DNA of 50,018 nucleotides, counting the filler, from Jimgerdemannia flammicorona (lineage: Eukaryota), in the NCBI GenBank assembly GCA_003990765.1. It is 2 parts of 2 records of this genome, joined end to end, with 100 filler letters (N's around TTAATTAATTAA, not from the genome) between each part and the next. Parts side by side here need not be neighbours in the genome. Positions count along the whole stretch, not along the records: positions 25,065 to 50,018 come from RBNJ01000899.1; 1 more part is not named here. One strand, given 5' to 3'. The position numbers were made by a program, and so were the translations under genes. Shown piece by piece: positions 327 to 50,018 of the stretch. A model generated the notes under the pieces. It had not been told where the DNA came from, searched no databases, and worked only from the letters and a program-made list of their open reading frames with translations. Position 1 is the stretch's first letter, and every line of letters begins with the position of its first letter.

Positions 327-887
327 TAGCTGTTCTTGTTTTATGTATATCCATGAGAGTGGTATCTTGTAGCTTTTGAGTACTGGCCTGTGGGAACTTC
401 TGGTAGAGGAGGGTTTCTATTTCATACTCCTGCCATATTTGGAGGCATTTGATAGCAATGGTGATCCTTATTTCCATTTCATAGTAGTAGAGAATATAAT
501 GATAAGAGTCACCAGTACTCAGGTTGACACTAGGAGTCTTTCTTGAGCAGGTCCTCATGGCTCTTCTGATGTCTTAGAACATCCTTTCTTCAACTGAGAT
601 GTCTTGGTAGTTCCTTGACCTTGAGGTTTGGTAAGCAGCAGACATTTCATTTGTAGTAAGTCTTTGAGCTATTTTGGGATTGGTGGGTCTTGTTGGTTGC
701 TGTTACCATAGTTCCTTGGTCCTTCTTTTATATTCCTCAAGATACTCATACTGTGGTCACAATGACTCACAGTTGGTCATCATTGTTCATCTCATATGCT
801 GTATGATCTTTTTGTGCTCTGATCTGGTGACTTATAAGGAAAGACTGTCTCTTGTGCTGATGTTATCATTCTGGAGTCACTGTTATA
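327..887 (-). mobile_element. Truncated LTR fragment (5' ~560 bp) of the family-1 Ty3/gypsy LTR, inverted
   Basis: Reverse complement matches 9920-10480 and 17148-17710 (TATAACAGTGACTCCAGAATG vs TGTAACGGTGACCCCAGAATG). It contains the start of the LTR ORF (ATG at 645; RTCSRKTPSVNL). Confidence 0.95.
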
Positions 888-899
888 ATAAGTAGCTTG

Positions 900-6986: not shown

Positions 6987-7076
6987 GTTGAAGGAAACAA
7001 GATGGCGCCACTTTTAGTTGAAGGAAACAAGACGGCGCCACTTTTAGTTGAAGGAAACAAGACGGCGCCACTTTTG
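6987..7076 (+). repeat. In-frame 30-bp tandem repeat x3 (VEGNK[M/T]APLL)
   Basis: GTTGAAGGAAACAAGAYGGCGCCACTTTTR occurs three times. Confidence 0.95.
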
Positions 7077-7439
7077 ATGAAGTTCGACCTTTCTCTCCCA
7101 CTCATCCATCGCTTGGCATTCGGTGGAGATGCGGCAAGGGTCAGATCACTCTGTAGTGGTCTCAGTGACGTCAGTGTTCGGGACAGAATTGGCAGAACGC
7201 CGCTGTACGTGGCTGCACAGAACGGTCACATTGACGTGATCGAGTGACACGTGTATGAATTTCAGGCAGAGATTTCCCCAAAAGACTTGTATGATGACAC
7301 CACTGCACCTAGCCGCAGAAACCGGTCGCACCGAGCTTTTGTCAACGACTTTGGCGTTGACGTCAATATCAAAAATTATGTCGGAGTAACACCCCTTTAC
7401 AGTGCTGCACGAAAAGGCCACGTCGATATTGTGAGGTTG

Positions 7440-7850
7440 CTCTTGGCCGACTCCAAGGCTGACGCCAAAGCTAAGGACGGCGAGGGATGGACGCCGCTTC
7501 ATTTCGCTTCAAGCGAGGGGCACGTCGAGGTCGTAAAGGTGCTCTTGGCCCACTCCAAGGTGGACCCCAACGCCAAGACCAACGACGGATGGACACCGCT
7601 TCACTGTGCTTCAAGCGAGGGGCACGTCGAAGTCGTAAAGGTGCTCTTGGCCGACTCCAAGGCGGACGCCAACGCCACGGATAACTTGTTGTGGACCCCG
7701 CTTCATCTCGCTGCGCAGAACGGGCACGTCGAGATCGTTGAGGTGCTCTTGGCCGACTCCAAGGTGGACCCCAACGCCAAGACCAACAATGGATCGACGT
7801 CGCTTTACTGGGCTACTTGCAGAGGGCATCCCGAGGTTGTGAGGATGCTG
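7440..7850 (+). repeat. Ankyrin repeats as 102-bp units with high internal DNA identity
   Basis: CTCTTGGCCSACTCCAAGG recurs at 7440, 7542, 7644 and 7746; the translation gives GWTPLHxA...GHVEVVKVLL units. Confidence 0.95.
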
Positions 7851-10161
7851 GAGGCCGGGCGCCAATGCCAAGAAAAATAATGAATCAACTCTGCCTCACT
7901 TCCCCAGGCAGCGCGTCGTAGTTTTGAAGATGGACGATCGAAATGTCTTTACAGGGGCACTAAGCGGAGGATTCATAACTTGAGATTCCTGACCTGGTAG
8001 GGAATTTTGCTGGATAGAGTGTATCAAAACTTGTGCCGTCTGGAGATTTTGTCACCGTCGGGGTAGGAGATAGCGTGGAAAGAATAGAACGAAAGCCAAA
8101 TATATTTTTTAACAAAGAAAAAGAGGTTCTCATAAAAATTCTTTTCAAAAGTTCAAATGATGGTAAGGGAGTGTTGTTTTGGAGTTTCTATTTCGATTCC
8201 ATCATGTCATCTTTGTTTTGTGGAACCCCAAGATAGTTGATCGGCAAGCGCTATGTCGAGATCGCTATCACAGCTTGCGCACACCACGACCGCCATGCTT
8301 CATAGTAATAGATATTACTGACGAAAGCTTTAGAATGGATGGTGGGGTTGGTGTTATAGTTGTCTTGGGTTTGTGTTTAGGGTGCGGCTGATCGTAGAAT
8401 ATAGAATGGATGTTAGGGCAAGGTGCGCCGTGATTGATGGTGTGGTGAATTGGAAGGTGGCATGGCGACAGATAGGGTGATGACAAGCATTTGGGTGGAC
8501 GAAATGAAGGGTGGGAAGCGTGAACTACAAAGTCACCGGATAGAGATAGTAGCTGATCGTATACCCGACCTCCATTCGTTCCCATCCCTCCTACACCATT
8601 GCCCGACCAGATCTGCCGCCAAGCGCCATTGCTATTTTGACAACCCTGTCATAAGAATCTCTGCCTCGTCGCTTGAATGGAATCAGTTAAAGTTTAGTGG
8701 TGAGTGCTTTTATTTTATTTTATTTTTGGAAAGCTCAGAAATAATTTCCAGCCTGGCCCCGCCCAACCCTCTCGGCCCATTCAGGAAGTAATTACATCCC
8801 TTCGCCATTACCTCCGGGACCACTTAACCCTCCACCGCCAACCACGCCAGACCCAAACCTGTCCAACATCCCCGTTGGTAGGGGGGGGGGTATACGTGGT
8901 TTTCAGGTCATGCCGTCCGGACGTCATGCTGTCCTGACGGTGGTCTGCCGGTTTGGCATTGATTTTCTGTTCAAAACATATTATGAAGACGAGGTGGCAA
9001 AAAGAGGAATTGAGTCCATTAGCATCGTTCATAGTAACCATAGCCAAACACCTTAGTATGGCACAGATGTATCAATAAGATGCCAACTTACATTCAAATC
9101 GTGGGGACGTTCTGGTATTAAATTCTAAGTGAACGCATCGCGCAAATAACGACATATGGGACAACAATTAGCAATGTTCGACAGATAGTATATAATAGCC
9201 CAGCCGGGAATATTACGTCGTTCGAGCTTTGCAAGCTGGGCGTTGCAATTATTTTTAACATCCATCATCCTTTCGAAATTCGCCGAACTATACTCTTCTT
9301 TGAACGCCGTTCTGACCTCACTACCCTCACTAAGTGAATTGTATACAACTATTAAAATATCTGTTATACAATGAAATCAATCATGAACTTATTTTTAGAT
9401 ATATATATATTACACCAAGTTTCACATCTAAGCTATGGAATTTTGAGAAATGGTTAAGTCAGCCTCTTATTGTATTTCTTTTTCTTTCTTTGTTTTTTTT
9501 TGAAAAAAAGAAAAAAAAAATAAAAACGTTGATTCTAGTTGGAGGAAACCTTGCATGCCACTGGTAGCATATCTTTAGGAGAGGCCACTTTCAACATGTG
9601 AAGATTTCGTGCATTGCAGAATATGAAATAGATTGACAATAACCTTGAAACACAATAATATAATACTGACAACCAGCAAAGCAAGACATGCACTAAGTGC
9701 AAGACCATCAATACAGACAATGGCCATATCATTATAGCTGAGTTTTCCTTTATGGAGGTGGTGTTGCCCTTCAGGCTAAGACCACAGTAAGATTGCACAT
9801 CCAGTTTAGTATATAAATATACCATTGTTTGGTTTCTGGATTTAAATATTTACTTGAATAATTTATAATGAAGCTATTAACCCATTAGGGTTTTGCAAAA
9901 AGGAATAGAAGAAATATATTGTAACGGTGACCCCAGAATGATGACATCAGCACAGGAGACAGCCTTTCCTTACAAGCCACCAGATTGGAGCACAAGAAGA
10001 TCATACAGCATATGAGATGAGCAATGATGACCAACTGTAAGTCATTGTGATCACTGCACAAGTATCCTGAAGAATATAAAAGAAGGATCAAGGAACTGCA
10101 GTAGCAGCAACCAACAAGAACCACCAATCCCAAAATAGCTCAAAGACTTACCATAAACGAA

Positions 10162-10989
10162 ATACCTGCTGCCTGCCAAACCTCAAGGTCAAGGAATCAC
10201 CAAGGTATCTTGGTCAAGGAAAGAATGTTCCAAGACATCAGAAGAGCCATGAGGACCCACTCAAGAAGGACTCCTAGTGTCAACCTGGGTACTGTAGACT
10301 CTTATCACTTCATTCTCTACCACTGTGAAATGGAAACAAGGATCACTATTACTACCGAATGCCTCCAAATGTGGCAGGAGTACAAAATAGGAAACCTCCT
10401 CTGCCGGGAGTTCCCAGAGGCCAGCACCCAAGAGCTACAAGATGCCACTCCCATGGATATACATGAAACAAGGACAGCTAAGAAGATCCATCAGATCTTC
10501 AGACATATACCATGGTCAATCCCCAACTTGGAGTATGTTAGAGTCTCAGATTTTAGAGACCTATCATCCCACCATATCAATGCACTAGAAGCCAGGGTGG
10601 CTACAGAAGCCCAGTCCACTATCACCCTCAACAGTGAAGAAGTAGAAGACTTCTGGCACCCTATCCTTCAGGACAACTCAGATCAATTCCTGCAAGGATT
10701 GATCTCAGTATTCCAAGGCCCAAGCATCCAGGTTAGATCTCCCCAAGACCCCACATTTGTTCCTTATTTTGTGGAAGAGAACCTCATAGACTGGAGAGCT
10801 CCAGACCTTGTCCCTGATTTCCCTGCCACAGCCAAATGTGATGATGTCATCGATGACATCATCCTGCATGACATACCTGAAGCACATGAAGTACACGAAA
10901 CATGTGACCTACATGACGAATTCGCAGACCTCATCTCCTTCAGTGATGATGATGATAAAGCCCCCATGATCCTGAACTTTCTACTCTAA
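10162..10989 (+). CDS. LTR (U3)-encoded protein of unknown function, 275 codons, acidic C-terminus
   Basis: Open frame of 828 nt. The start is ATA here but ATG in the other two copies (17390; 645 on the minus strand). Same length in the 3' LTR (17390-18217). Confidence 0.75.
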   Translation: MPAACQTSRSRNHQGILVKERMFQDIRRAMRTHSRRTPSVNLGTVDSYHFILYHCEMETRITITTECLQMWQEYKIGNLLCREFPEASTQELQDATPMDIHETRTAKKIHQIFRHIPWSIPNLEYVRVSDFRDLSSHHINALEARVATEAQSTITLNSEEVEDFWHPILQDNSDQFLQGLISVFQGPSIQVRSPQDPTFVPYFVEENLIDWRAPDLVPDFPATAKCDDVIDDIILHDIPEAHEVHETCDLHDEFADLISFSDDDDKAPMILNFLL

Positions 10990-11197
10990 GTTCTTTGTTA
11001 CACTAGATAATGCCAGCACCAGTATTCTCATGTGATACTGGATAATGCCAGCACTAGTATTCTGAGGTGATGCAAAATTGTTCCAGCACTGGCATTTTGA
11101 TGTGACACTAAATAATGCTAGCCCTGGAACTTAGTAGTTTTAGTTATTGGAATTTATATTTAGCTTTATATCTTAGCAACCATTGAATTATATTTTG

Positions 11198-11230
11198 TAT
11201 AAATACTCCTCTTATTTCCTCTAAAATAAA
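11198..11230 (+). promoter_or_regulatory. LTR TATA box (TATAAATA) and AATAAA signal
   Basis: TATAAATA at 11198-11205 and AATAAA at 11225-11230; both conserved in the 3' LTR (18391). Confidence 0.6.
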
Positions 11231-11452
11231 GTCAGTCAATTCAGTACATTCAGTTCAGTATAATACACACAATCCCTTGCAAGCAATCTAAGAGATAACA
11301 AGACAGTTAAAGATAAGAAGTTTGAGGACTATAAAACCTTGGGAAGGCACTCCAATAAGAACTTGCTTATAACAACTTAAGTTAGTCTAAGAGATATATC
11401 TTGAAGAGAATCTGGTGTATTTGAAGGACTCAGTAACCACTATGTGACAACT

Positions 11453-11468: not shown

Positions 11469-11569
11469 GTGATTCAAGATGAATTCCTCACTTTCAAGCT
11501 GAAAAATGAACAACTCCCACAACAACTACCCTGACTACAAGAGTCATCCCTGCAAGAATTCAAGACAAG

Positions 11570-12826
11570 ATGGAAATATGTCCCCTCACATTCTATAGAT
11601 ATACTACTGAAGAGTCAATTCTGACCTTCATTGAAGACTTTGAACAATTTGCCACCATACGAGCCCTTGGTATGGATGCTCAATTGGCCCTTCTACCAGT
11701 CAGCCTCAGAGGACCTGCCAGAGACAAGTTCAATACAGCCACCATTGCTGATGCTGGTGCAGCCAAACTTGCCAACATGAAGGTCTTCCTCAGAACAACA
11801 TATTATACTGAAGAGATCAAGCAAGCTCTCAAGGATCAACTCAATACTATCTGTCAGGGACTTAGTGAAGATTCCAACTCATTCTATATCTGAATCTGCC
11901 ACCAGATTGTCTTGGCTGGCTATAATGATGCCCTCAAGGAACAAATAGCAAATTCAACCTTCCTCAAAGGAGTTTACCCTGAAATTGCCCTAGCAATCTG
12001 GTCTACCCCAGCTGCACCAACCCTTGATCAGAAAGTGGTCTTTGCATAGAGATATTGGACTGCCAGACACCCTGCCGAACACTCAATGGAGAAAATAACT
12101 GGCATCAAGATAGAGCCATCAAAGCCAACTAGTATCTTATCTGCAACAGTTGTAAACAGACAACCAACCCCACCTATCCCCAAGACAGCCAAAGCTGACC
12201 CAGTGGAAGAACTTGCCAAGCAGTTTGCCAAGATGACTGCACACCTCAGTGATGTTGTTAGAGAAGTCTGAAGCACCAACAGGAGACCAGTGTAGAGATT
12301 TGCAGTTGCTACAAAAGAACACAATATCACATACTTCAGATATAGAGAAGAAGGCCACTATGCAAAGAGTTGTATGACCGAAACAAGATGCAAAGCCCAA
12401 CCAAGCAATGCTAGTAGAACCAGAGAACAAACCAATGCAGTAGTCATTGAGGAGATTGGTGATACTGATGATGAAGAATACTATGAGGAGCTCGAATTCT
12501 ACCCTGCTACTGAAGGTATCAGAACCCAGTCCAAGCCCTATGACAAGAAGAGCAACAGCAAGCCAGTTGGAAGACCAAAGAAGACTCTAGCTGTCACTAT
12601 TCAAAGCAAGACCAAACCTGAGGAGATTGATCAAGACATGGAGTTAGATGAAGCTACCTGCCAAATTATCGAAGGCACTACTCCAGTCTCAGGAGAAAGT
12701 GAGAGCAAGAAGAAACAGAAGCTGTGCAAGACCAAGATCCACCAGTATGACATCTACAAGTACCTCAAAGAACAGAAGATCAATGCCACTTTTGGGCAGC
12801 TAGCTGAAGTTCCTGCCTTCAGATAG
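11570..12826 (+). pseudogene. gag: Gag with degenerate zinc knuckle
   Basis: FIEDFEQFA...LRGPARDKF capsid-like segment; YFRYREEGHYAKSC (decayed CCHC); CGA>TGA stops. Confidence 0.85.
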
Positions 12827-12939
12827 CAGTTGAGAGTAGGACTTGCAACTACCATCAAGAATTAAGAGTACAAGATTGTAGAAGCTCACAATGCACAAGA
12901 AGAATCTGAGAACTCAGGTAAAGAATCCAAAGACTAGTG

Positions 12940-15900
12940 CAAGACATCAGCCTATACCCTCTGTCAGATTGAAGACTGTATCTTTGATGTCATCATTGAT
13001 ACTAGTGCTGGAGGATGCCTCATGAGCAAGAAGGCAATTGACTGCCTAGGTTGGGACATTGAAGAGTCTACTAAGATGGTCTATGTTACAGCAGATGGTA
13101 CACGAGCTACCCCTATTGGCAAAATCCGAGAAGTCCCCATTAAGATAGGAGGAGCTACCATTCCAGTAGATATGATTGTTACAAGTACCACCAACTATGA
13201 CATCATCATTGGCAACCAATGGCTTCACAAGGCCAAGACCATCATTGACCTCAATGCCCAGAAGATGCAGATCAACTACAGAGGAAGAAAGGTATGAGTT
13301 TCTATCAATGTCCACAAAGGAGTCCTGCCTGACATAGAGGAAGGAGATGAAGAAGACACAGAGGTCTTCATGCACTTGGTGAACAAGAGCAAGAACAAGA
13401 CACCTAAGCTCACAGATGAGCAGTGGTATAACAAGATCATCAATAGATATGCCCCTCAAGGAAGATGCCCTCATGGTACTAGAATGTACTGCTCCAAACA
13501 CCTGAATGACTGCTGGTCCTGTATCAGTGAAGTCAGGAAAATCTGCTAACAGAAACATGAGCAAGAAGCTACTGAAGCAAAAAGGAAAGCTGAAGAAGAT
13601 GACCAGCCCCCAGAGCTTCAAGCTGACAGTGACAATGAGGAGGAACAAGAATCAGACATCACCCTCAAGGTCAAGAAGATTCACCCTGAAGCTAAGATCC
13701 CAGAATACAAGACTGAAGGAGCCATAGGAATGGACCTTGCCAGCATCCAAGATGCTATCCTTGAACCACAGACCACCACCCTACTTGGCACTGGAATTGG
13801 AGTCAAGTTGCCAGAAAACCATACTGGAATTATCAAGACCAGGAGCAGTCTGGCCAAAAGCGAAATCTCAGTTGAAGGAGGAGTAATTGACCCTGATTAC
13901 ACTGGTGAGATTTTTCTCATAGTCAGAAATTACAACCACACCACCCCCTTCAAAGTCAAGAAGCATGACAGGATTGGCCAGATGCTGATCCACGAAATCA
14001 AGAAGCCCAAGATCATAGAAGCCACTGAACTTATCAAGACCAAGTGAGGAGAACAAGGCTTTGGATCTACTGGAAGAGGAGCCTATGTCACCACCAAGAT
14101 TACTGAACTTGAGCACAAGAAAGACAAGGACCAGAACAAGCACATATATACCATTGGAGAAAAATTTCCCCTGGAGGAACAACTTCTCAAGATCCTGTAC
14201 CAGAATGAAGGAGTACTTGCTACAGACTTTAGAGATATCCACAATCAAGAACCCAAGTACTACTATGAAGTTGACACTGGTGATACCAAGCCTATCTACC
14301 AGAAAGCCAGACTGATACCACCTGCCTACAGAGAGTGGCTGCAAGCCGAACTCAAGGAAATGGAAGAAGCTGGAATCATCAAGCAAGCTATCAGCCCCTG
14401 GGCCTCACCCATTGTCCTCACCCCAAAGAAAGGAAGCAAGCCTGGAGAGTTTGCACTAAGACTCTGCATCAACTACAGGAAACTCAATGCCATCACCAAG
14501 AAGGATAGGCAGCCCATACCAAATATTCAAGAAATCCTTACCACCCTTGGAAGCGAAGCCAAATACTACACCATTTTGGATCTGTTCTCAGACTTCCATC
14601 AGATCAGTCTCACTCAAGATGCCAGTGAGAAATCGGCCTTTATCACACCTGATACCACCTATACCTATCTGCGAATGACATTTGGAATGTGCAATGCCCC
14701 AGCAAGTTTCCATCAAATGATGAACAAAGTCTTCAGCAATGAGATTGGAAAATGGCTCTTTGTCTATATTGATGATGTGATCATCTTCAGCAACACTGCA
14801 TGGGAACATGTCAATTACATACAGCTAACCCTCAAGAGGCTCAAGGAGCATAGCCTCTATATCAAGCCCAAGAAATGTAAGTTTGCAGCTCAATAAATCA
14901 CCTACCTAGGACACCTCATCAACCAGACTGGAATCCACACAGACCCCATGAAGATCGAGGCTGTTGCAGCCTACCCAAGACCCAGAAAAACTACAGAAGT
15001 CCATGCCTTCCTTGGACTGGCCAGCTACTACAGAAGATTCATCAAAGGATACTCCAACATTGCAGCATCTATCTATGAGCTACTGAAGAAGGAGACCAAA
15101 TTCGAATGGACCACGGAGCACCAAGAAACCTTCAATGAACTCAAGACCAGGTTGACCCAAGCACCCATCCTCAGAAGACCAGACTGGAACCTAGAATGCA
15201 TCCTGCAGACAGATACAAGTGCCATAGGACTTGGAGCAGTTCTAGCTCAGAAGAAAGATGGATATGAATATGTTATCTCCTATGCAAGCTGAGGTACCCA
15301 CGGAGCAGAACAGAACTATGAGTCATGCAAGCTTGAATGCTTAGTAGTAGTTTGGGCAGTAGACAAGTTCCACTACTACCTAGCTGGAAAATGCTTCACC
15401 ATTCAAACGGACCATTCTGCTCTTGCCTGGCTATTCCACACTTGGAACCCCAAAGGAATATATGCTAGATAGATCTACAGGCTGCAAGAGTATGACTGTA
15501 CTGTCAAGCACCACTCAGGAAAGACCAACACCAATGCCGATGCACTCTCAAGGACACCCCGAAACACCCCCATCAAGACTACTCAACATGAATAAGGAGC
15601 CATACTATGGATTAATCAGCTACCTTGGGCAGCAGAAGATACCCAACCACCTTGAACTCTGGACAATCACCATCATCAACCGACTTGGAAACAGTTTGAA
15701 TTAGACAACACTATACTCAGAAAAGGAGGAAAGCTAGTAATATCTGAATACAAGAAGTATCAAGTAATGAAGGAAGTACATGAGCAAGGACACTTAGGAG
15801 GAACCAACATATACGACAAGGCAAGAAGAGCCATGTGGTGGTCCAAGATGGAAGAAGACCTGCACCAATTTGTCAAAAGGTGTGACAAGTGCCAAAAACA

Positions 15901-16800
15901 GAAATAAGATCAGCAAGACCAGGTACCCAGATCATCAAGAATTGAGCCTATCCCCTTCCACCACATCACAATGGATATCATTGGACCACTACCAGTAACA
16001 CTATCAGGAAACTACTATATTATAGTTATCATAGACCTCTTCACCAAATGGATAGAGGCAGGAGCATTACAAGAAGCCAATGCCCTCTCTATAGCTGACT
16101 TCCTATACCGAGAAATCATCTGCCACTACAAGACACCAAAGCAAATCACAACAGACTGTGGTACAGAATTTGTCAATGGATTCTACGAGATAATATATCA
16201 GAAATACAAGATCCAGTACATCAAGACCACTGCATACCACCCTCAAGGAAATGGACAGACAGAGAGAACCAAAAAGACCCTCAAGAACATTCTAGCAAAA
16301 ATCTCAGAGACATATGAGAATTGGGATAACTATCTCCCAACTGCCCTCTCTGTTCTATGAGACATATGGTCACAGAGCACACATTTTACCCCAAGAGAGC
16401 TGCTCTTCAGAGAAGAAGATTCTGATGGAACCTCAGCTACAAATCTAGACCTAACTTGGAGGTGGGTTGATGCAGAAATCTGGAGACTACACCAAATCAG
16501 GAAGAAGGCTGAAGATTATATCACCAAGTCACAAGTGCTGATAAGGAAGAATGCAGAAAAGAATCACAAGACCCTAGAACCCATCTGGATTGGAGAAAAG
16601 ATTCTACTGTATCAAAATATGGTAGAAGCCTCATGGTCATAAAAACTGGAGCCCAAATGGGAAGGATCCTTCTATATGTAAGATATCAAGGGAACTATCT
16701 TCTGGCTTAGAAAAATCTCAGGGACCATACTGCCTACCATGGTACATAGGAACAGACTCAAAAAGTATCATGAACCTATATAAGAGAAGCAAAACATGAT
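12940..16800 (+). pseudogene. pol: Pol: aspartic protease, dUTPase, RT, RNase H, integrase
   Basis: IIDTSAG (PR); SPWASPIVL, LRLCINYRKLN, MTFGMCNAP, YIDD (RT); LQTDTSAIGLGAVL (RH); HEQGHLG..CDKCQK, MDIIGPLP, TDCGTEF, HPQGNGQTER (IN). Multiple stops. Confidence 0.95.
13660..14075 (+). pseudogene. dut: Retroelement dUTPase domain (between PR and RT)
   Basis: GMDL, TRSSLA, GGVIDPDYTGEI, DRIGQM, (R)GEQGFGSTG motifs. Confidence 0.95.
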
Positions 16801-17147: not shown

Positions 17148-18642
17148 TGTAACAGTGACCCCAGAATGATGACATCAGCACAGGAGACAGCCTGTCCTTG
17201 CAAGCCACCAGATCGGAGCACAAGAAGATCATATGGCATATGAGATGAGCAATGATGACCAACTGTGAGTCATTGTGACGACAGTACAAGCATCCTGAAG
17301 AATATAAAAGAAGGATCAAGGAACTGCAGTAGCAGCAACCAACAAGAACCACCAATCTCAAAATAGCTCAAAGACTTACCATAAATGAAATGTCTGCTGC
17401 CCACCAAACCTCAAGGTTAAGGAATCACCAAGATATCTTGGTTGAGAAAAGGATATTCCAAGACATCAGAAGAGCCATGAGGACCTGCTCAAAAAGGACT
17501 CCTAGTGTCAACCTGGGTGCTGCAGACCCTTATCACTTCATTCTCTACTGCTGTAAAATGGAAACAAGGTACACTATTGCTACTGAATGCCTCCAAATAT
17601 AGCAGGAGTATGAAATAGGAAACCTCCTCTGCTGGGAGTTCCCAGAGGCCAGTATCCAAGAGCTACAAGATACCACTCCCATGGATATATGTGAAATAAG
17701 GATAGCTAAGAAGATCCATCAGATCTTCAGGCATGCACCAGGGTTGATCCCCAACTTGAAGTATGTTAGAGTCTCAGATTTCAGAGACCTATCATCTCAC
17801 CATATCAATGCACTAGAAGCCAGAGTGGCTACAGAAGCCTGGTCCACTATTACCCTCAACAGTGAAGAAGTAGAAGACTTCTAGCACCCTATCCTTCAGG
17901 ACAACCCAGATCAATTCCTGCAAGGATTGATCTCAGTATTCCAAGGCCCAAGCATCCGAGTTAGATCTCCCCAAGACCCCACATTTGTTCCTTATTTTGT
18001 GGAAAAGAACCTCATAGACTGGAGAGCTCCAGACCTTGTCCCCAATTTCTCCGCCAAAGCCGAACATGATGACATCATCGATGACGTCATCCTGCATGAC
18101 ATACCTGAAGCACGCAAAGTATGTGAAATGTATAACCTACATGACGAATTCGGGGACCTCATCTCCTTCAGTGATGATGATGATGAAGCCCTCATGATCC
18201 TGAACTTTCTGCTCTAAGTTCTTTATTATACTAGATAATGCCAGTACCAGTATTCTGAGGTAATGTGAAATTGTTCCAGTATTGGCATTTTGATGTGATA
18301 CTAAATAATGCCAGCCCTAGAACTTAGTAGTTTTAGTTATTGGAATTTATATTTAGCTTTATATCTTAGCAATCATTGAATTATATTTTGTATAAATACC
18401 CCTCTTATTTCCTCTGAAATAAAGTCAGTCAATTCAGTATATTCAGTTTAGTATAATACACACAATCCCTTGCAAACAATCTAAGAGATAACAAGACAAT
18501 TAAAGATAAGAAGTTTGAGGACTATAAGACCTTGGGAAGACACTCCAATAAGAACTTGCTTCTAACAACTTGAGTTAGTCTAAGAGATATACCTTGAAGA
18601 GAATCTGGCATATTTGAAGGACTCAGTGACTACTATGTGACA
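17148..18642 (+). repeat. 3' LTR (1495 bp) containing a disrupted copy of the LTR ORF (17390-18217)
   Basis: TGTAACAG...GTGACA; the ORF has TGG>TAG stops at 17600 and 17882. Confidence 0.97.
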
Positions 18643-38929: not shown

Positions 38930-39010
38930 TACAGATGGGTTATGTGTGGATAGGTTGCATGTGGATGGGTTGCATGTGAGTGAGTTGCATGTAGGCAGGT
39001 TGCATGTGGG
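38930..39010 (+). repeat. 14-bp tandem repeat (GGTTGCATGTGGAT) x~5
   Basis: Directly visible. Confidence 0.8.
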
Positions 39011-39319
39011 TGTGGGTGTTTTTTTAGAAGGAGACTATGTAAAAAATGAAATTAAATAAAACACAAAGATGAGTATTTCAGAAAAAGAGCATGAGTGAGT
39101 GAGTGAGTGAGCTGCAAGCCAATAAGTTATATACTGATGAGTTGCATGAGTTGCACAAGATTACTCATGAAGGCTTGCTTCTGTTCCTTTTGAGACCTCT
39201 GCCATACAATGTATTAACTCAACAGCTCAGTCACCAAAGGCATGCTCCACAATATCCTCCAACCTTTCTTCATCTTGATCAGATGTTGCAAATAAAGTTG
39301 GCAGATCTTGCCATAGAGC

Positions 39320-41188
39320 TGTAAGAGGGTTGCTATTTAAGATAACTGTTACATAGTTCTGGAAGGGTTTTCTGGAAGTTCTAGATGTTCTGGAAGACCG
39401 TTTTCTTATGGTCAAGATCAATTTCATATGGAGTATGTCCTCTACGCTTATTGATTTCAAGATCGGGTTGACATCTCAACCAAAGTCCTTTTCTCAGACT
39501 AGTTCTGGGTTTTCAGGATTTTCCATATTTCAGGAAGTTCAAGAAACTAAGACCAGTTTAGTTGAATTGGCATATCACTGCAGACAATACCTAAGTAGGA
39601 ATTTTTGTGACAGAGTTAGGAGTGGGACCTAACAGAGAGCAGATTTACTTAAGAGTGGTTTGTGGGTTATTAAATAGGTTTATTCGCTATTTATGATATT
39701 GCTATACTAGGAGTTGTTGTGTGAAGGGATATTGTGGAGAAGTGCTCAGGAGTTGTGTTTGGAATGTTCAAGTGTTCAAGTCTGAGATTCTGAGGTCTGG
39801 GGGAGGGGGTATTTATACTAGTGAGGGGCTATCTGGACTATACTTGATATAGATGTAGCACTAAGTGCTTTGCTGAGTTGGAATGCAGTCACATAGTACA
39901 AGTGTGATCTGATATGTCAAGAGATTGTCTGACTGCTGAGTCAGTTCACAGTCACATCATATAAGGCTAATCTAACTATACTATGACTGCTTAGGCTATT
40001 TATGGTTTAGGCATAGTCTGGGTAGTCCTCGATGACATTACCATCGATTGCATCATCTCTGATAAAGTAGTTATCTAGGAAGAGTAGTTTGCGGATTACT
40101 TCTCCTTGTTCACTGAGATAATAATACATTGGAACTTTGTCTCCATCCCACAAGATGGCATCATCAGTCTCATATGCTGGATAAGGTGTTGGTGGGTGAA
40201 GGAGGGGTGCATCATCTTCACTTTCATTGGATTCGCTGTCTGTATACCTTCTGTAGGTTACAGCACTATGAGTCGTAGGGTTATAGTAAGTGGGGGGCTG
40301 TGGTTCATGTCACTCATACTCAGATAGTGGAGTGGTTGGTTCAATCTCAAGGGTTGTCTGGAGGTACAGGTTGTGTTCTCCGGTTTCTTCATTGTAGTTG
40401 AAGTAATTAGGGGTAAAGGCGGGTTGGTATTCATACCAGTGGTCATTGTCCCAATAAGTCTCATATGCTATTATGAATTGTTATAAGTTCATTGGCAAGG
40501 TTGGCAGTATGATCAGGGTTGGCAGAGATCCTTGGCTAGAGGTCATGTCAGCATCAGAGGGATCATTGTCTTCTGCTTCATCTTCATCGAAGTGGATTAT
40601 ATCATAGATGTCCTTCATGGCATATCCAACTTGGGGCATTTGCAGGATGTGATCATTGGGGTGTGAGAAGGTTCTGTCTGTGGTTTTGATGTACTTGAGG
40701 TACTTGTGGTTGAGTTCTTGTATCATGTTGTTGATTTGGCCATAGGACAGGGTGGCAACCATTTCAGCTGTGGTAACTCAGAGGTGGGGAATAATGGTGC
40801 TATACTCATAAAAGAGTTCTCGATGTTTGTAGGCAATAAGCTTCTGATGTTGAGACATCTGGGTTATGTCTATATCATAGTAGTGTTTGATCATGTCTTC
40901 CAGGAGGTGGCCGATCTGGTAGTAGCTTGAGATTTGTCTGATTCGGTGGGCCTCGCTAAGCATGTTCAGAGCATTCCATCGGGCTTCTACAAAGTAGAGG
41001 GGTGCTAGGCTATGGATATTCATGAGGGGCAGAGGGGGTGTAGCTCAGTTGATAATGGCATTCCAAATGTCAGCATGGATATGGGTATAGATCTCGGTAG
41101 TCATATTTGTATGTTTTAGAAGTTGTAGTTGTTATTTGTTTTTGGTTCTCTGATTTGATGTATCTCAGTGCTCGGTATATATGCATTT
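39320..41188 (-). mobile_element. Family-2 LTR copy lacking ~200 bp of its 5' end; contains the LTR ORF at 40007-41104
   Basis: Reverse complement of ~44480-46328; ends CTCTTACA. Confidence 0.93.
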
Positions 41189-41925
41189 TGTAAGAGGGTT
41201 ACTTTTTAGGGTAGCCGTTACGTAGTTCTAGAAGGTTTTCTAGAAGTTCTGAATATTCTGGAAGACCGTTTTCTTATGGTCAAGATCAATTTTGTATGGA
41301 GTATGTCCTCTACGCTTATTGATTTCAAGATCGGGTTGACGTCTCAACCAAAGTCCTTTTCCGGACTAGTTCTGGATGTTCAGGATTTTCCGTATTTCAG
41401 GAAGTTCAAGAAACTAAGACCAGCTTAGTTGAATTGGCGTATCGCTGCAGATAATACCCAATTAGGAAATTTCGTGATGGGGTTAGGAGTAGGACCTAAC
41501 AGGGAGCAGATTTACTTAAGAGTAGTTTGTGGGTTATGGAATAGGTTTATTTGCTATTCATGATATTGCTATACTAGGAGTACTTGTGTGAAGGGGTATT
41601 GTGGGGAAGTGCTCAGGAGTTGTGTTCGGATTGTTCAAGTCTGTTCGAGTCTGAGATTCTGAGGTCTGGGGGAGGGGGTATTTATACTAGTGAGGGGCTA
41701 TCTGGACTATGCTAGATATGGATATAGCACTAAGTGCCTTGCTGAGTCGGAATGCAGTCACGTAGTATAAGTGTGATCTGACATGTCAAGAGATCATCTG
41801 ACTGCTGAGTCAGTTCACAGTCATGTCGTATAAGGCTAATCTAACTATATTATGACTGCTAGACTATTTATAGGTTTAGGTACTGTCTGGTTAGTCTTTG
41901 ATGACATCACTATTGATGACATTAT
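41189..41925 (-). mobile_element. Family-2 LTR 3' fragment, tandem to the previous copy
   Basis: Repeats 39320-40060 (TGTAAGAGGG...). Confidence 0.92.
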
Positions 41926-43544
41926 CACTAGCAAAGTCTGAGCAGTTTTCTGACTTCTGACATCATCAGTTTTCAAGATGTCGTCACTTCTATCTCTTGT
42001 AAGATTAAGACTATCCTTGGTGGCGGTGGTTGTACAAGAATAACAGGTCTTGGTTCTCTTTTTTTTTAGTCTGCTGGTGCATTTGCGAGGACTGGCCATT
42101 CTCGTCTAGGGCGAGGGCTCCCAATGTCGCGGCTGGGGGTTCGAATCTCTCAGAAATGATATTTTCTGTAATCCGAGGCAATTTCTAGTAGTAATATCTG
42201 TCACATGGATGGCTTGAGATTGGTTTCGATGTTGTCGGCTTTCTTGAGTTCAGATGAAGTATCCATCACTCTCCAACGGAGGTAGATGTACTTCCATCAG
42301 AACAGAATACACCTATACAGTAATAAACAGCTATCTATCAAGCCCTTACTCCAGACTCACAACTACTACTCCAGCAACTTACACAGACTCAAAGAACACC
42401 CTCACACTCTGCACCAGTACCTCAAGTAGTACCAGTAACATCACAACCAGCAGTCCAACCACCTCCAGTAAACAATATAGCAAACCAACAGATTTTAGAC
42501 CTTACAGCCTAGGTAGCGATAATGGCAACAACCATTACTGCCTTAGCCAAACAGACTCAACCTACCAAAAATCTGAGCCTACCTACCTTCAATGGTACTG
42601 CACAAGAAGTCCAAAGCTTTATTAGTGTAGTTGATACCAACTTTGAAGCCAATCAATGGACCAATGAGCGAGTTGCTGACTACATTCTGATAAATAATCA
42701 AGACCACACTCTGGAACAACTCTTTGCTACCACTACAGCCTATGTCTGCTGAGTTGTTACATTCTTCCAAGGACCTGCCGAAGAATGGTGGTGAACCCTT
42801 CCTGAAAAATCCCTCACATGAGATACCTGACCTGTAGTAGTTGCTCAGAATGCAGCAAACAATGTCCCAGGATATGGAGCCCATCCTGCAGCCCCTGGAC
42901 TCAAACAACTCATGATTGCTCAATACCACAATGAAACCATGATTGCTGAATCTCGAGTAAAACTCCACAACCTCAAATTTGATATACATGGCAAAGAAGA
43001 ATTTGAAACCTTCTGTACAAAACTCAAGTCACTCCTGAACACTGTTGGCCTAGGATATATTGCCAATGATGAAGTATGAAATGGTACAAGAGCAGACCAT
43101 TTATTTGATATACTGCCTGAATGGCTTATGAGAAAAATCCATAAACAAGGCCACTCAGTCAGTTGTGATCACCAACAATGATACCTAGTAAGAATCAAGA
43201 CTATGGTCAAGTGAATCCTAATAGCTGGACCAATTCTACCCTAAAGACAATTCAACAACAAGGAAAATACTTGGACCAAGAAAGAAGAACCCAAGCATGA
43301 AGCATCCCAAACTCCCTCCACATCCACTTCTTGGACACTCAGAAATCATGAATCCATACAGCTGAGTACCTTCAAGAAACTCACTGAAGGCAAAAGAAAT
43401 GAACTTCAAAGAAGTGGAGCATACTTCTATTGCTGAAAGACAGAACACATAGCCAGTACCTGCCCCAACTGAAAACTCTGAACAGCAATATGAGCAACTG
43501 TTATCACTCTGCACCACCTCAATAACCTGACCACCAGAATACTG

Positions 43545-43950
43545 GACTTTGTCAAGTTAAGGCAAACTGCCAAGGCCCAACCAAAGGAAGTCAAAAAGCA
43601 GCTGGATATGACCTATATGCAGCCAAAGAAGCTATAGTTTCCAACCGAGAAGTCAAGCAAGTCTACACAGGAATCAGTATCCAAATTCCTGAAGGATATG
43701 TTAGAAGAATATACTGTCACAGCAGTCTAGCATTGAAAGGACTCTCAGTAGAAGGAGGAGTTATTGATGAGGATTATACAGGCAAAATTATTGTCCTCAT
43801 CTGAAACCACAGTTGGACACTCTTCAAGATCCCTATTGATTTCTATATTGCCCAGATTTTATTCAAAAAAATCAAATCAACCCTGATAGTCAAGGAAGTC
43901 CCTGAACTACTGCCCACCATCTGAGGATCCAAAGGATTTGGCTCATCAAA
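43545..43950 (+). pseudogene. dut: Retroelement dUTPase domain (between gag and PR)
   Basis: AAGYDLYA, SSLALKG, GGVIDEDYTGKI, IAQI, *GSKGFGSS. Confidence 0.93.
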
Positions 43951-44273
43951 CAAGGCTCCAGTCCAACCTACTATGAATAAAGAAGAGCAATTCTATAAGA
44001 AAATTGAAGATGGATATGTACCAAGTGGCTGATGCCCTCATGGCATTGGAATGTACTCTTCCTGAATGATTGATGATTGCTTCTCTTGTGTCAATGAACT
44101 AACATAAAGAAGAATCAACAGAAGGAAAGCTCCTACAACTGAAATCACCACCATTGGATCAGACAAACTACTTACACTTAAAGCTTTTGTCAACCGAGCA
44201 CCTGTCAAGATTATGATAGACAGTGGTACCTCAGGCAACTTCATTAATGAAGAAATAGCCAATAGACTCAAGG

Positions 44274-46328
44274 TGTAGGTGCACAACCTCCAAGCCACTG
44301 AAATTACACGTCACTCTCTGAACAAGCCACTGAAATCTCACATGACCTCTGAACAAATCTGGAAATTACCTGCTTGATCACAAAGCTGAGTCAAACCAAA
44401 GTCACAGTGCACAAAGCTGAGTCAATACAAAGTCACAGAACACAAGAATTACATAAACAGAATCTTACCAATCAGGATCAAATGCATATGTACTGAGCAC
44501 TGAGACACATTAAATCAGAAGAACCAAAACAAACAACAACTACAACTTCCAAACACACAAATATGACCACCAAGATCTATACCCATATCTGCACTGACAT
44601 TTGAAATGCCATTGTCAACCGAGCCACACCCCCTCTGCCCCTCATGAATATCCATAGCCTAGCACCCCTCTACTTCGTGGAAGCCCAATGGAATGCTCTG
44701 AACATACTTAGTGAGGCCCACCAAATCAGACAAATCTCTAGCTACTACCAGATCAGCCACCTCCTGGAAGACATGGTCGAACACCACCATGATACAGACA
44801 TTACCCAGATGTCTCAACACCAGAAGCTCATCACCTGCAAACATCGAGAACTCTTCTATGAGTACAGTACCATTATTCTCCGCCTTCAAGTTACTATAAG
44901 CAAAATGGTTGCTACTCTGTCCTATGGCCAAATTGATGACATGATATAAGAACTCAACCAAAAGTACCTCGAGTATGTCAAAACCACAGACAGAACCTTT
45001 CCACACCCCAATAATTATATCCTGCAAATGCCCCAAGTTGAATATGCTATGAAAGACATCTACAATATAATCCACTTCGATGAAGACAAAGCAGAAGACA
45101 ATGATCCCTCTAATGCCGACATGACCTCTAGCCAAGGATCTCTGCCAACCCTAATCACTCTGCCAACCTTGCCAATGAACTTACAACAGTTCATAACTGC
45201 ATACGAGACATATTGAGACAATGACCACTGGTACGAATACCAACCCACATTCACCCCCGATTACTTCAACTACAATGAAGAGACCGGAGAACACAACCTA
45301 TACCTCCAGACAACCCTCGAGATTGAACCAACCACTCTACTACCTGAGTATGAGTAACATGAACCATAACTGCCAGCTTACTACAATCCTGCAACTCATA
45401 GTGCTATAACCTATAGAAGATATGCAGATAGTGAATCCAATGAAAGCAAAGACAATACACCCATCCTTCATCCATCAATACCTTATCCAGCCTACGAGAC
45501 AGACGATGCTATCCTGTGGGATGGAGATAAAGTCCCAATATATTACTACCTCAGCAAACAAAGAGAAGTAATCCGTGAACCACTCTTCTTAGATGACTAC
45601 TTCATCAGAGATGATACAATCGATGGTGATATCATCGAGGACTACCCAGACAGCACCTAAAACCATAAAATAGCCTAGCAGTCATAGTATAGTTAGATTA
45701 GCTTTGTACAATGTGACTGTGAACTGACTCAGCAGTCAGATGATCTCTTGACATATCAGATTACACTTATACTACATGACTATATTCTGACTCAGTAAGG
45801 CACTTAGTGCTACATCTATATTCAGCATAGTCCAGATAGCTCCTCACTAGTATAAATACCCCCTCCCCCAGACCTCAGAATCTCAGACTCGAATATACAA
45901 GAACATTTCTGAATACTTTTCCACAATATCCCTTCACACAACTACTCCTAGTATAGCAATATCATGAATAGCAAATAAATCTATTCAATAACTCACAAAC
46001 CACTCTTAAGTAAATCCACTCCCTGTTAGGTCCTACTCCTAACCCCATTACGAAATTTCCTAATTGGATATTGTCTGCAGCAATACACCAATTCAACTAA
46101 GCTGGTCTTAGTTTCTTGAACTTCCTGAAATATGGAAAATCCTGAACATCCAGAACTAGTCCGAAAAAGGACTTTGGTTGAGATGTCAACCCGATCTTGA
46201 AATCAATAAGCATAGAGGATGTACTCTATATGAAATTGATCTTGACTATAAGAAAACAGTCTTCTAGAATATCTAGAATACCTTTCCAGAACTACGTAAC
46301 AGTTATCCTAAAAAGCAACCCTCTTACA
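44274..46328 (+). mobile_element. Complete family-2 solo LTR (2055 bp) with 5-bp TSD CAAGG
   Basis: TGTAGG...CTTACA; CAAGG at 44269-44273 and 46329-46333; TATAAATA at 45851. Confidence 0.95.
44563..45660 (+). pseudogene. LTR (U3)-encoded protein of family 2, 365 codons, acidic C-terminus
   Basis: Single frame from ATG 44563 to TAA 45660, with point-mutation stops only. Identical 1098-nt length in the copy at 40007-41104(-). Confidence 0.75.
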
Positions 46329-47399
46329 CAAGGTCTTTACCTCTCTAGTACAACAAACTCAAGCAGTTGCCACAGCTGATAGAACCTCACATGTTATTAG
46401 CAAGGAAGTCTACAACTTACCCTTCTGAATTGAAGACTACTGAGTATATATTATCCTTTAGATCATACTACTCTCTGACAATGAAATCATCTTTGAAACC
46501 CTATGGTTGAAACAAGAGAACCTTATGATTGGTTGGGTAAACTATTCTCTGACCATCAAGAAAGGATGTCATAACTTCAAACTACAAGATGAAAAGGACC
46601 TACTCAATTCTAGTAACCCTGGACCAAAGATCACCCACATCAACAAGCTACAACTTAAGAAATTGGCCAAGAAATGTCCTCTCTTTGCTATCTCCATCTG
46701 TCCATCCAAAGGAGAACCCAAGAACTCTGAAGAAGACTTTTCCAAAGTTGACAGCCATATCAGACCACTACTCCAGAAAGCCCAAGATACATTTCTGAAC
46801 CAAACCACAGAACCACCTGTATCTGTCATTATTAATAACCAAGAATAATATAAAGTTGAACAAATCCTTAACAAACACAGCCACAAGAACCATCCAAATG
46901 GTACAACAACATCAGAACAAATTAGAAGGCCCTGATGAGGATATCAAAAGCTAAGAAGGGGAGAGTTGTAAGCACACAACCTCTAAGCCACCAAAATTGC
47001 ATGGCATCCTCAGAACTAATTTGGAAACCACATGCAAGACTACAAAACAAGTTACTGAAGAGATCATCTGGTTATATGGAATATGCCAGCAAGCATAAGA
47101 ACCCACTGCCAAGATACAAGAATACTAGAAGAAGTACTACAACTACAAGACTGACTCCAAACCACTATAACTAGTTTGGTATACTGTACTATTACAAAAG
47201 GAAACTGAAAGTACCAAACTCAAATTGAGATAAGAAGAACCCTATCTCATCTACCAAAAGGTTCACAAATTGTACTTATCAACTTAAGACCAAGATATAC
47301 TGTGACTATATAAGACCTCATTACTTAGCAGAAGTAAAACATATTTGAATAACTCTATTTGCTCTATTTGTATCACCTCTATTAGAGAGTGATGGATGC

Positions 47400-48320
47400 G
47401 GGGAAGGACTCCTTTTGCTCGAACCATTTAGAGCAAGCTAAGCTACACAGACATCTTTTTGCGACAAGCAACATGTTTTCAAGTTTTCCCGTCATCTATT
47501 CTGGTGTATAAGGTGTGGCAGGAGTCTAGCTACAGCATACAACAAGTCTCATTGATTTTGGTGGAGTTTTCATCGGATGGCAATCCAGGGTTCATCAAGC
47601 TCTGAGTGTTTGGAGAGAAGGAGGCCTGGTCTGGATCTCCCCAAGAGTTTTGCGGTGACAGTTGGAGCAGGTGTAGGGGCAGGAGGAGTAGGTGGTCAGG
47701 AGAGGCAGGCTGGTATTGCGAGTTGGCACACAGTGATGGGGGGCAGAAGGGTGGCTACTAGGCCCATGGGGGTAGGGTAGGGGGGGCATAGTGTTGACAG
47801 GGGTAGGAGTCAGGTGACCAGCCAGGTGACAGGTCAGGTGACTGGTCAGGTGCCTGCTAGGGGCCAGGGGTCCGGAAGTAGTGTGGCTGGGACTGGTATT
47901 CCTGGGGCTGGGCCGGTGGCTGGGATGACTGCTGGAGTGTTAGAGAACAAAAAGAAGGCGATGATGGCAGTTGGATCTGGTGAACTGGTGGTGCATCCCT
48001 TCTTCCACAAATCGGTGTCGACGTGGGCCATATCAGCAAATTTTTTGGGTCTGGGGATGTCTGCGAGGGAGGTCTTGCAGCTAGTTGGAGAGGAGATTGC
48101 AGGGGTGGAGTCACTGAAGTTCATCCCATCAGCTGAGGCGGTTGAGATAGGATTCGTCAAGGAGGAGGAGATGGTGAAGGCCTTGGAGAAAGGGCTGGTC
48201 ATCAAGAGCATCAAGGTTGGCATGGCAAGGTGCCTGAGGTGGGACCCGCAGGCAGTGCGACTGGTGATTGAAGGGCTGCCGACGTTGGGGAGACAGGAGA
48301 CCAAAGGAATGGTGGTGCAG
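47400..48320 (+). mobile_element. Non-LTR (LINE) ORF1-like fragment, truncated by the next element
   Basis: G-rich; RRM-like AVEIGF..EEMVKALEKGL..RCLRWDP..RLVIEGLP, paralogous to 48940-49200. Confidence 0.5.
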
Positions 48321-50018
48321 TAGATGACTATCTTTCTCCAGTAACATTCAGGTTACACAATCTTTTGGCAACACTTTCGACGCAGTTTCTGGAGACAAGC
48401 TACTAGTATCATGGCTACTGATGAGAATCCTGAGGTGTGTACTGGGCAGGGTGGCCCTGGAGTGTTTGGATGGCAGCATGTGGGGAGAGGACCTGGCTTG
48501 GGGGGAAGCATGAGGGGCCTGCTGGTGGGAGGATGTGGTGGAGGAGGAGGCAGGGCTGGAGGGCAAGGGTCTACCGGCGACAATGGAGGAATATCTGGGT
48601 TCCCGAGCTTCGCGGACAAGGTCAAGGGGAGTGGGTGGCCGACTGGTAGTAGGGCTAGTGCTGCTGAGGGGATGGGCAAGGCGAGCCTAGGGAGGGGGGG
48701 TGGTGCTCTGGCTGGGGGGGCAGGAGTAGGGGCTGGAGGAGCGGTGGCTGGGGGTGTGACTGCTGATGGGTGCGTGACGGGGAATCAGCAAAAAAAAAGA
48801 GATGTGATGGCTGATGGCCAGGTGGGGCAGGGGGTCCCGATGCAGAAGGGGGACCTGGCCGATGGTGTTACCAGGCTGGCGGTGGCACCGTTACTCAAGA
48901 AGTTGATCTCGGAGTTTGCGGTGACTCTGTGCTTCTGAGGCTTAGGGGTAATGGCAAGGATGGTCTTGGGGCTTATCTCGAAGCAGGTGGCTGGGGCAGC
49001 ATCGGTGAAATTCCTGAAGGGTCTGGAGGGAGTTGAGGTGGGCTTTGAGGAGGTGGGCCCACTGGAGGAGGCGCTGAGGGCAGGAGTGGCAGTTGGTGAG
49101 GTGGTGGTCCCCATGGTACACTGTTTGAGGTGGGACCCCAGGGTGGTGCAGCTGCTGGTGAAGGGGGTGCCCACAGTGATGAAGGAGGAGACAAGGAGGA
49201 GGGTAGAGGAGGTGATGGCAGAGTATGGAGATGTGGTGGATATTGGCTTCCAGGTGTGGGAGGGGATGACGATCAGGACTAGCGATGTGGATGTCAGGAT
49301 CCGGCTGACAGGGAGGGAGGCCATGGGGAAGACTGGTGACTGGCCCTCAGTGTTGATGTGGGGGGCCTTTATTTGTAAGGTGTCAAGGGTGAAGGGGAGT
49401 GAGGAGGAGGAGGAGGATTTGTTGGAGGTATTGGAGGAGATGAGTGGTGTGGTGGAATGGCGGGCGAAGGCCTGGAAGCTCTTTGAGGAGTCGACGCATT
49501 TGGAGATTGTGGAGGGGAAGCATATCCGTACTGACAAGAGGCAGTGGGAGAGGGCTCAGGGGTGCTTGAGGCAGAGGGAGCTCTTGGCGAGTATGACAGG
49601 AGGAGAGAAGAGGAAGGTTGATGGGGCTGAAGGGTCTGGAGGCATCAAAGCTAGTGTATGGGCTAGCGAAGGTGGAAAGGAGGCGGTGGTGCCGGAAGAA
49701 TGGGCCGCGAAGGTACTGGGCAGGGATCCTTATGCTGATGGTACTTTCGAGGTCTGGGAGGAGGAGTCAAATGGTACCCCCCCCCCACTTATTAGGAGGG
49801 GCCCGGTGGGGTGGCAAGGGGTGGCAGAAGATGTATCGATGAAGGGGGCCCAGTGGATTACCTTTGGGGTCCCAGATGTGGCGAAAGGGGGCCAGGTGGT
49901 GGCTGTCGGAGAGGATGAGTTGGTGGATGTCCCAGAGGAGGAGTGGAATGAGGATGCTAGTGTGGGTACAGATACTACGATGCTGGATGCAGGGCGGCCA
50001 GGGACCCCTGGAGGGAAG
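48320..50018 (+). mobile_element. Non-LTR (LINE) ORF1-like gene, from ATG 48411 to the window end
   Basis: One frame with a single TGA (48936-48938); VEVGFEE..HCLRWDP..LLVKGVP..MAEYGDVVDI tandem RRM-like pattern. No RT in the window. Confidence 0.55.

Follow-up and report, generated by a model that had tools for sequence, protein, structure and literature searches.

A decayed, once-selected gene that probably lies in the U3 region of a long terminal repeat from Jimgerdemannia flammicorona, and its parallel in a second repeat family

Retroviral genes residing in the U3 region of the long terminal repeat (LTR), among them sag, nef and tas/bet, take the 3'-terminal place on the genomic RNA, and their mRNAs are spliced or arise by internal initiation. 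In mouse mammary tumor virus (MMTV), Sag is a membrane glycoprotein for which Pfam contains a model, and Tas of the foamy viruses has an acidic activation region. As a rule, LTRs are regarded as modules that supply promoter and terminator and code for nothing, and they are masked ahead of gene calling. We analyzed a stretch of 50,018 nucleotides from the J. flammicorona assembly GCA_003990765.1 (the window; two parts joined through 100 filler letters, positions 25,065 to 50,018 coming from RBNJ01000899.1), in which an open reading frame (ORF) of 366 codons lies inside an LTR of one family (family 2) and a second ORF lies at the corresponding place in the LTRs of another (family 1). This arrangement resembles that of MMTV sag, in the excerpts of the literature available likewise a sense ORF inside U3, several hundred codons long, that both LTRs contain and that occupies the 3' end of the genomic RNA. 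It also resembles foamy virus tas/bel and bet and nef of human immunodeficiency virus (HIV), which are 3'-terminal accessory genes running into U3 and using spliced mRNAs or an internal promoter. The additional ORFs (aORFs) of plant gypsy elements (PMC6317226, PMC11963269) and the 'add. ORF' reported for gypsy elements of fungi (Novikova et al. 2010, PMC2864245) are similar insofar as these papers, in the portions available, describe extra conserved ORFs with function not assigned. The reading that we favor, with a probability of roughly 0.6, is that the 366-codon ORF is a decayed, once-selected gene inside the U3 of an LTR and is paralleled in family 1. The family-2 features are as follows.

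44274..46328, plus strand: family-2 solo LTR, 2055 bp, with termini TGTAGG...CTTACA (delimited by its ends, the CAAGG repeats, contig joins in runs X1 and X4, and BLAST pairing)
44269..44273, unstranded: left target-site duplication CAAGG, read from the sequence, with 5-6 ambiguous letters at the joint
46329..46333, unstranded: right target-site duplication CAAGG, read from the sequence
44563..45660, plus strand: family-2 LTR ORF, 366 codons, a pseudogene with five in-frame stops and no frameshift (translation, selection signal, public relatives P0010 and P0013)
45850..45859, plus strand: TATA-like motif GTATAAATAC, with AATAAA at 45974 (identical 10-mer followed by C-rich sequence in family 1)
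39320..41188, minus strand: second family-2 LTR copy, without the first 206 bp (self-BLAST)
40007..41104, minus strand: second copy of the family-2 ORF, 1098 nt, four in-frame stops (ungapped alignment)
41189..41937, minus strand: partial family-2 LTR with the last ~20 ORF codons, the TATA-like motif and R-U5 (self-BLAST; X11 contig at 41937)
42248..44268, plus strand: degenerate gag-dUTPase-protease element that hosts the solo LTR and resumes after 46334 (ORFs, Pfam)

The family-2 ORF runs in a single frame from the ATG at 44563 to the TAA at 45658-45660 (1098 nt), begins 289 nt from the 5' end of the LTR in sense orientation, and lies wholly inside the LTR. The plus-strand copy is interrupted at codons 14 (TGA), 129 (TAA), 218 (TGA), 265 (TAA) and 269 (TAA). 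The minus-strand copy (41104-40007) is exactly 1098 nt long and aligns with zero gaps and 142 differences, in agreement with an earlier note on this DNA, which had reported two full copies of 1098 nt without a net frameshift. Two public proteins continue through the interrupted positions: P0010 (247 aa, no stop) is 62% identical to residues 115-366, and P0013 (128 aa, no stop) covers residues 1-128. Codon 14 is TGA in the plus copy, TGG in the minus copy and tryptophan in P0013; the peptide that the earlier note had read as DIRNAI is therefore DIWNAI. Both copies share a stop at codon 265, one as TAA and the other as TGA, and P0010 reads glutamine there.

The signal of selection comes from the comparison of the two window copies. 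Their differences fall at codon positions 1, 2 and 3 as 50/19/73 over the full 1098 nt, and a chi-square test on the 1038-nt span (45/18/70) gives a p value of 2.4e-7. The ratio of nonsynonymous to synonymous change (dN/dS, Nei-Gojobori) is 0.19, the lowest of the six frames, the other five ranging from 0.34 to 1.53; by segment it is 0.26 for codons 1-130, 0.16 for codons 131-264 and 0.16 for codons 266-366. The low value in the last segment means that the ancestral protein did not end at the shared stop at codon 265. No insertion or deletion separates the copies across the ORF, whereas 23 gap positions occur over the next 668 nt. Because of this codon-position bias, the low dN/dS, the absence of indels and the uninterrupted public relatives, we conclude that the family-2 ORF is a once-selected protein-coding gene and a pseudogene here. 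Purifying selection acted on the gene from end to end during the divergence of the lineages that led to the two window copies, and the stops in both copies arose later, mainly via transitions. The earlier note had derived selection on the protein from conservation between the two LTR families; selection stands, but that argument for it does not, because the signal comes from within family 2.

Public relatives of the family-2 protein are few and are unnamed or labeled 'hypothetical protein'. A profile search against 1.84 billion representatives returned four hits, of which two are real (P0010 and P0013) and two were taken as spurious: P0014 and P0015 match in 9 and 6 short stretches, P0015 being a repetitive protein. 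Scans with both family alignments confirmed no match in metagenome contigs (0 of 31 and 0 of 355 pattern matches) or in viral contigs (0 of 24 and 0 of 34). Read-through from pol into the LTR was rejected as the source of the ORFs, as stop codons delimit the ORF within the LTR in both families. In the ORF copies of both families the disabling changes are mostly transitions (TGG to TGA or TAG), several other stops are one transition away from the sister codon, and differences to public contigs are likewise dominated by transitions. This predominance suggests cytosine deamination, methylation-linked or resembling repeat-induced point mutation, as the process by which the LTR ORFs decay.

The unit that contains the ORF has the marks of a solo LTR: TG..CA ends, the CAAGG duplication, joined flanks, and analogy with family 1. 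Public contigs mapped on 39000-47500, from runs X1 (listed as 'DNA?') and X4 ('?'), connect 44268/44269 with 46329/46330, 5-6 letters of the joint being assignable to either flank, as follows from a solo LTR with its duplication at 44274-46328. The same joint read as an intron (apparent GT..AG ends) was rejected, since LTR ends and a 5-bp duplication mark the piece that would be skipped, and that reading is further weakened by the way in which the joining runs are listed. The earlier note had placed the ORF in an LTR, and this holds, with the LTR extending beyond the BLAST-paired segment 44480-46328, which is 86.9% identical to 41188-39320. The window contains three family-2 copies by self-BLAST, one solo, one 5'-truncated and one partial, the last (41937-41189) adjoining the minus-strand copy head to tail. 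The solo LTR breaks the protease region of its host element, in which Pfam identifies a dUTPase (43526-43801) and an aspartyl protease (44108-44275). The TATA-like motif GTATAAATAC follows 190 nt past the ORF stop, and from its position the ORF probably lies in U3, a placement that is predicted only. Soil metagenome runs from several studies contain parts of the family-2 LTR.

Public contigs reveal further junctions around the family-2 repeats. A contig from X11 (record 18; window 41649-42024) crosses the 41937 junction at which the partial LTR loses the ORF, and this ORF-less form may be a repeated variant in its own right and not a local deletion. Several public contigs link 41344 or 42816 to 46969, and 47223 to 39322, an LTR end; by these distant joins, other copies have additional insertion or recombination breakpoints at either limit of 46969-47223. 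Loose-end sequence past the LTR in X10, a possible family-2 leader, had no match in the window.

The second LTR family is represented by the following features.

9920..11449, plus strand: family-1 5' LTR (89.8% identity to 17148-18642; ends and an AT-rich target duplication)
10162..10989, plus strand: family-1 LTR ORF, 5' copy, open from the ATG at 10225 (254 aa), with ATA at 10162 (P0005-P0009, P0016)
11510..16642, plus strand: family-1 internal region encoding gag, protease, dUTPase, reverse transcriptase, RNase H and integrase (Pfam)
17148..18642, plus strand: family-1 3' LTR (self-BLAST, ends)
17390..18217, plus strand: family-1 LTR ORF, 3' copy, with the upstream ATG kept and two TAG at tryptophan codons (translation)
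327..890, minus strand: third, partial family-1 LTR with the first 106 ORF codons and an ATG at 645 (self-BLAST)

Family 1 is a true Ty3/gypsy element, its LTRs (termini TGTAAC...GACA) flanking the complete set of Pfam domains listed above. The ATG 21 codons upstream of 10225 is kept at 17390 in the 3' LTR, at 645 on the minus strand in the third copy, and in P0006, and because of this the ancestral protein was probably 275 aa long. A TATAAA at 10075 and 17303, 87 nt upstream of the upstream ATG, is conserved between the family-1 LTRs and is a candidate signal for a transcript starting early in U3. The six public relatives (P0005-P0009, P0016) are 60-88% identical to the ORF. The dUTPase follows the protease in family 1 (13550-14044) and precedes it in the host of the solo LTR, and therefore the two gypsy lineages of the window differ in pol layout. 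Variable positions of dUTPase are described for basidiomycete gypsy elements in the portion available of PMC2864245.

We compared the two LTR proteins by several methods. The earlier note had found no extended DNA similarity between the families, and this was confirmed, the best blastn match having an E value of 0.49 over 46 nt. At the protein level, BLASTP, Smith-Waterman, hhalign and HMMER place the two in one shared collinear alignment over about 105 N-terminal residues, including the blocks YQIGHLL/YEIGNLL and KHRELF/KIHQIF. The longer form ACKHRELF, cited in the earlier note, is found in no copy, the copies reading TCKHRELF, AYKHRELF and ARKHRELF. The family-1 hidden Markov model (HMM) scored 8.6 bits against P0013, the cleanest family-2 sequence, a score equaled in 3 global and 4 local shuffles out of 5000 each; the empirical significance is ~7e-4 before correction for the several tests tried. 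Shuffling by column equaled the real hhalign score in 2 of 300 cases and local (12-column) shuffling in 2 of 250, and the reversed alignment reached half of that score. In nine Smith-Waterman pairs, between 0 and 1077 of 2000 shuffles reached the real score. The layout of the two LTRs is parallel as well: the sense ORF is offset from the start of its LTR by 289 nt in family 2 and by 305 nt in family 1, or 242 nt when the upstream ATG is counted as its start, the distance from ORF to TATA-like motif is 190 and 208 nt, and an identical GTATAAATAC 10-mer is followed by C-rich sequence and a downstream AATAAA. The ORFs of both families thus lie upstream of a common motif, as the earlier note had stated, with occurrences at 11197 and 18390 in family 1 and at 45850 (plus), 39818 and 41687 (minus) in family 2. 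From these alignments and layouts we lean towards a distant homology of the N-terminal ~105 residues, in which case the U3 gene would predate the split of the LTR families; the homology is suggestive only.

A number of results weigh against the favored reading, and those on homology come first. The three alignment versions gave hhalign E values of 0.059, 0.018 and 0.013 at probabilities of only 0.9-3.4%, and BLASTP E values were 0.30 and 0.046. In the reciprocal test, the family-2 HMM, built partly from two decayed copies, scored -0.7 bits against P0005, a score equaled by 600 of 5000 shuffles, and the family-2 profile retrieved no family-1 protein among the 1.84 billion representatives. As several homology tests were run, the best p value has to be discounted. 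These figures, together with the lack of DNA similarity and the different dUTPase positions, are what would be expected if the two ORFs were real but unrelated U3 genes, each captured or born de novo on its own at the same permissive U3 site, with the match due to chance and composition. We consider this unlikely, though it is the most serious competitor. So few shuffles equal the family-1 HMM score against P0013, all methods return one register, and ORF offset, orientation, TATA distance and TATA 10-mer all run in parallel; moreover, long U3 ORFs are rare, and two independent ones within 50 kb would be a coincidence. For the homologous protein family proposed in the earlier note, the profile-profile alignment by hhalign, at a probability below 4%, is formally not significant, and one HMMER test, uncorrected, and the parallel LTR architecture speak in its favor. 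The AlphaFold models proposed as a companion check have a confidence (pLDDT) of 32.6 and 31.0, and only the order of the N-terminal helices looks alike.

Family 1 itself supplies a second group of opposing points. Its 5' and 3' ORFs differ with a dN/dS of 0.76 and flat codon positions (27/23/20), as expected for decay after insertion, and the third copy, with a dN/dS of 0.49, has flat positions too. The case for a family-1 gene therefore rests on the six public relatives, since the DNA of the window gives no selection signal for this family; those relatives were gene-called, which favors intact copies and leaves broken ones unseen.

The status of the family-2 unit as an LTR meets objections too. 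A full family-2 element, with two LTRs around gag-pol, is absent from the window, so that the designation is drawn from the unit's ends, its target duplication, its joined flanks and its analogy with family 1; the term U3, in turn, depends on the TATA-like motif and not on a mapped transcription start. The missing pair, and the sequence directly after the unit, which is unlike a primer-binding site, would also suit a complete small non-autonomous element of 2055 bp or a captured host gene moving by other means. We regard this as very improbable, as the TG..CA ends and 5-bp duplication are those made by a gypsy integrase, the unit itself lacks terminal repeats, its order of ORF, TATA-like motif and AATAAA is that of the proven family-1 LTR, and a head-to-tail arrangement of a partial and a full copy is usual for products of LTR recombination. 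A frame left open by chance in A/C-rich LTR DNA, or a functionless relic, is a scarcely credible account of the ORF: broken window copies (5 and 4 stops), the lack of a known domain and poor structural models would fit, but the dN/dS, the 50/19/73 periodicity, the 1098 nt free of indels and the stop-free relative at 62% identity do not, nor is an overlapping constraint from another frame or strand favored, as the other five frames score worse.

If the decayed ORF is taken as a once-selected U3 gene, then its product may be considered from the protein features. The LTR ORF proteins matched no curated family in Pfam-A, NCBIfam or PDB, the only PDB rows having an E value of 0.31 over 28 residues, and within these collections this agrees with the earlier note, which had called the system probably undescribed. 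A Pfam scan of the four window translations (P0001-P0004) at E values up to 1 returned no family, hence no Sag match. In the Protein Atlas the best feature score was 0.88 for P0002, P0010 had no usable hit, and structure rows had template-modeling (TM) scores of at most 0.30, giving no lead. AlphaFold draws helices at residues 1-163 in family 1 and 1-142 in family 2, mostly followed by coil, and the pLDDT of 31-33 in both models, a further point against the favored reading, makes statements on helices and disorder weak. The N-terminus of family 1 is strongly basic, with a net charge of +8 in 60 residues of P0006. The C-terminal half is acidic in both proteins and contains hydrophobic and aromatic segments; the acidic tails reported in the earlier note are visible in the charge profile. 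A speculative picture, guessed from these models, is a helical N-terminal part with a long acidic, aromatic- and proline-rich tail that is predicted to be disordered. It is possible, at rather long odds, that the product would serve the element in trans as a regulator or adaptor, for instance by transactivating the element's LTR.

The proposed mechanism is modeled on the U3-overlapping accessory genes of complex retroviruses. With U3 copied to both ends in each round, the gene would be carried by every LTR, solo LTRs included. Because the ORF would be the 3'-most on the genomic RNA, it would have to be expressed from a spliced or subgenomic mRNA or else through a promoter within the initial 300 nt of U3, and the product would then act in trans as a regulator or adaptor. 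No RNA run is among those listed as containing the LTR; a few contigs of X10 and X11, two runs guessed to be RNA, span the ORF start at ~87% identity, and being contigs they show no RNA level, start, end or strand. Taken to its furthest, the proposal would be that fungal gypsy elements of this group carry a trans-acting regulatory gene wholly in U3, like the tas/rex/rev class of complex retroviruses, with a helical or basic N-terminal part and an acidic effector tail in its product, and of an age that has left it too diverged between LTR families for easy recognition, with each solo LTR a potential copy serving or policing the family in trans; we put this forward as a conjecture that is more doubtful still.

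The remainder of the window contains several features of other kinds. On the plus strand, 2560-7880 holds an ORF run with a weak NB-ARC/AAA match (5680-6069) and, after it, strong ankyrin repeats (6846-7877) made of tandem units of 102 nt (7356-7865), and looks like a broken gene of the fungal type that resembles NOD-like receptors (NLR; signal transduction ATPases with numerous domains, STAND). This gene and the gypsy elements with dUTPase at different positions are consistent with a fungal source. A 245-aa ORF on the minus strand (27788-28522) matches DUF7869 (E 3e-10) and is possibly part of another mobile element. The stretch 42100-42170 (minus strand) resembles a tRNA T-arm (GATTCGAACCCCC) without an ARAGORN or Rfam call there, the tRNA and Rfam scans of the whole window having given no hits, and 42092-42244 is covered by a public contig of high word depth. 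Over 47500-50018 the GC content jumps to 58% with a strong G skew, and the open frames at 48939-50018, which runs off the window end, and 47781-48320 have no Pfam match.

A gene inside U3 would bear on how LTRs are handled. U3-resident accessory genes would be possible in LTR retrotransposons beyond the vertebrate retroviruses, and solo LTRs, which such elements leave behind more often than any other remnant, may contain coding sequence. Masking of repeats would conceal this class of proteins from databases; the distinct relatives (cluster representatives) found among billions of sequences number two for family 2 and six for family 1. If the two families are homologous, then the gene would be an old and stable part of the biology of these elements and a direct handle on their self-regulation.

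Compared with the systems introduced at the outset, the ORF at 44563-45660 shares with MMTV sag its place as a sense ORF within the LTR, upstream of the TATA-like motif at 45850, and this likeness is positional only. It differs in having no sequence relation to Sag and in belonging to a Ty3/gypsy type of retrotransposon without env, in an apparently fungal host; no sign of a membrane glycoprotein is evident in its product. Foamy virus tas/bel and bet and HIV nef have no sequence similarity to the ORF, which lies entirely within the LTR. The aORFs and the 'add. ORF' are, in the portions available of the papers describing them (PMC6317226, PMC11963269, PMC2864245), features of the internal region, placed either upstream of gag or in the stretch from pol to the 3' LTR, and none is in the LTR; for PMC2864245 the comparison covers the paper apart from Figure 3 and Additional file 1, so that one 'add. 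ORF' there could be in an LTR. A search of the literature, seen in part and with Repbase and Dfam outside its scope, gave no fungal LTR-embedded gene and only MMTV sag as an 'LTR ORF'. Set against these systems, what appears new here is a probable accessory gene in the U3 of a fungal-type gypsy LTR, encoding a protein family without known relatives.

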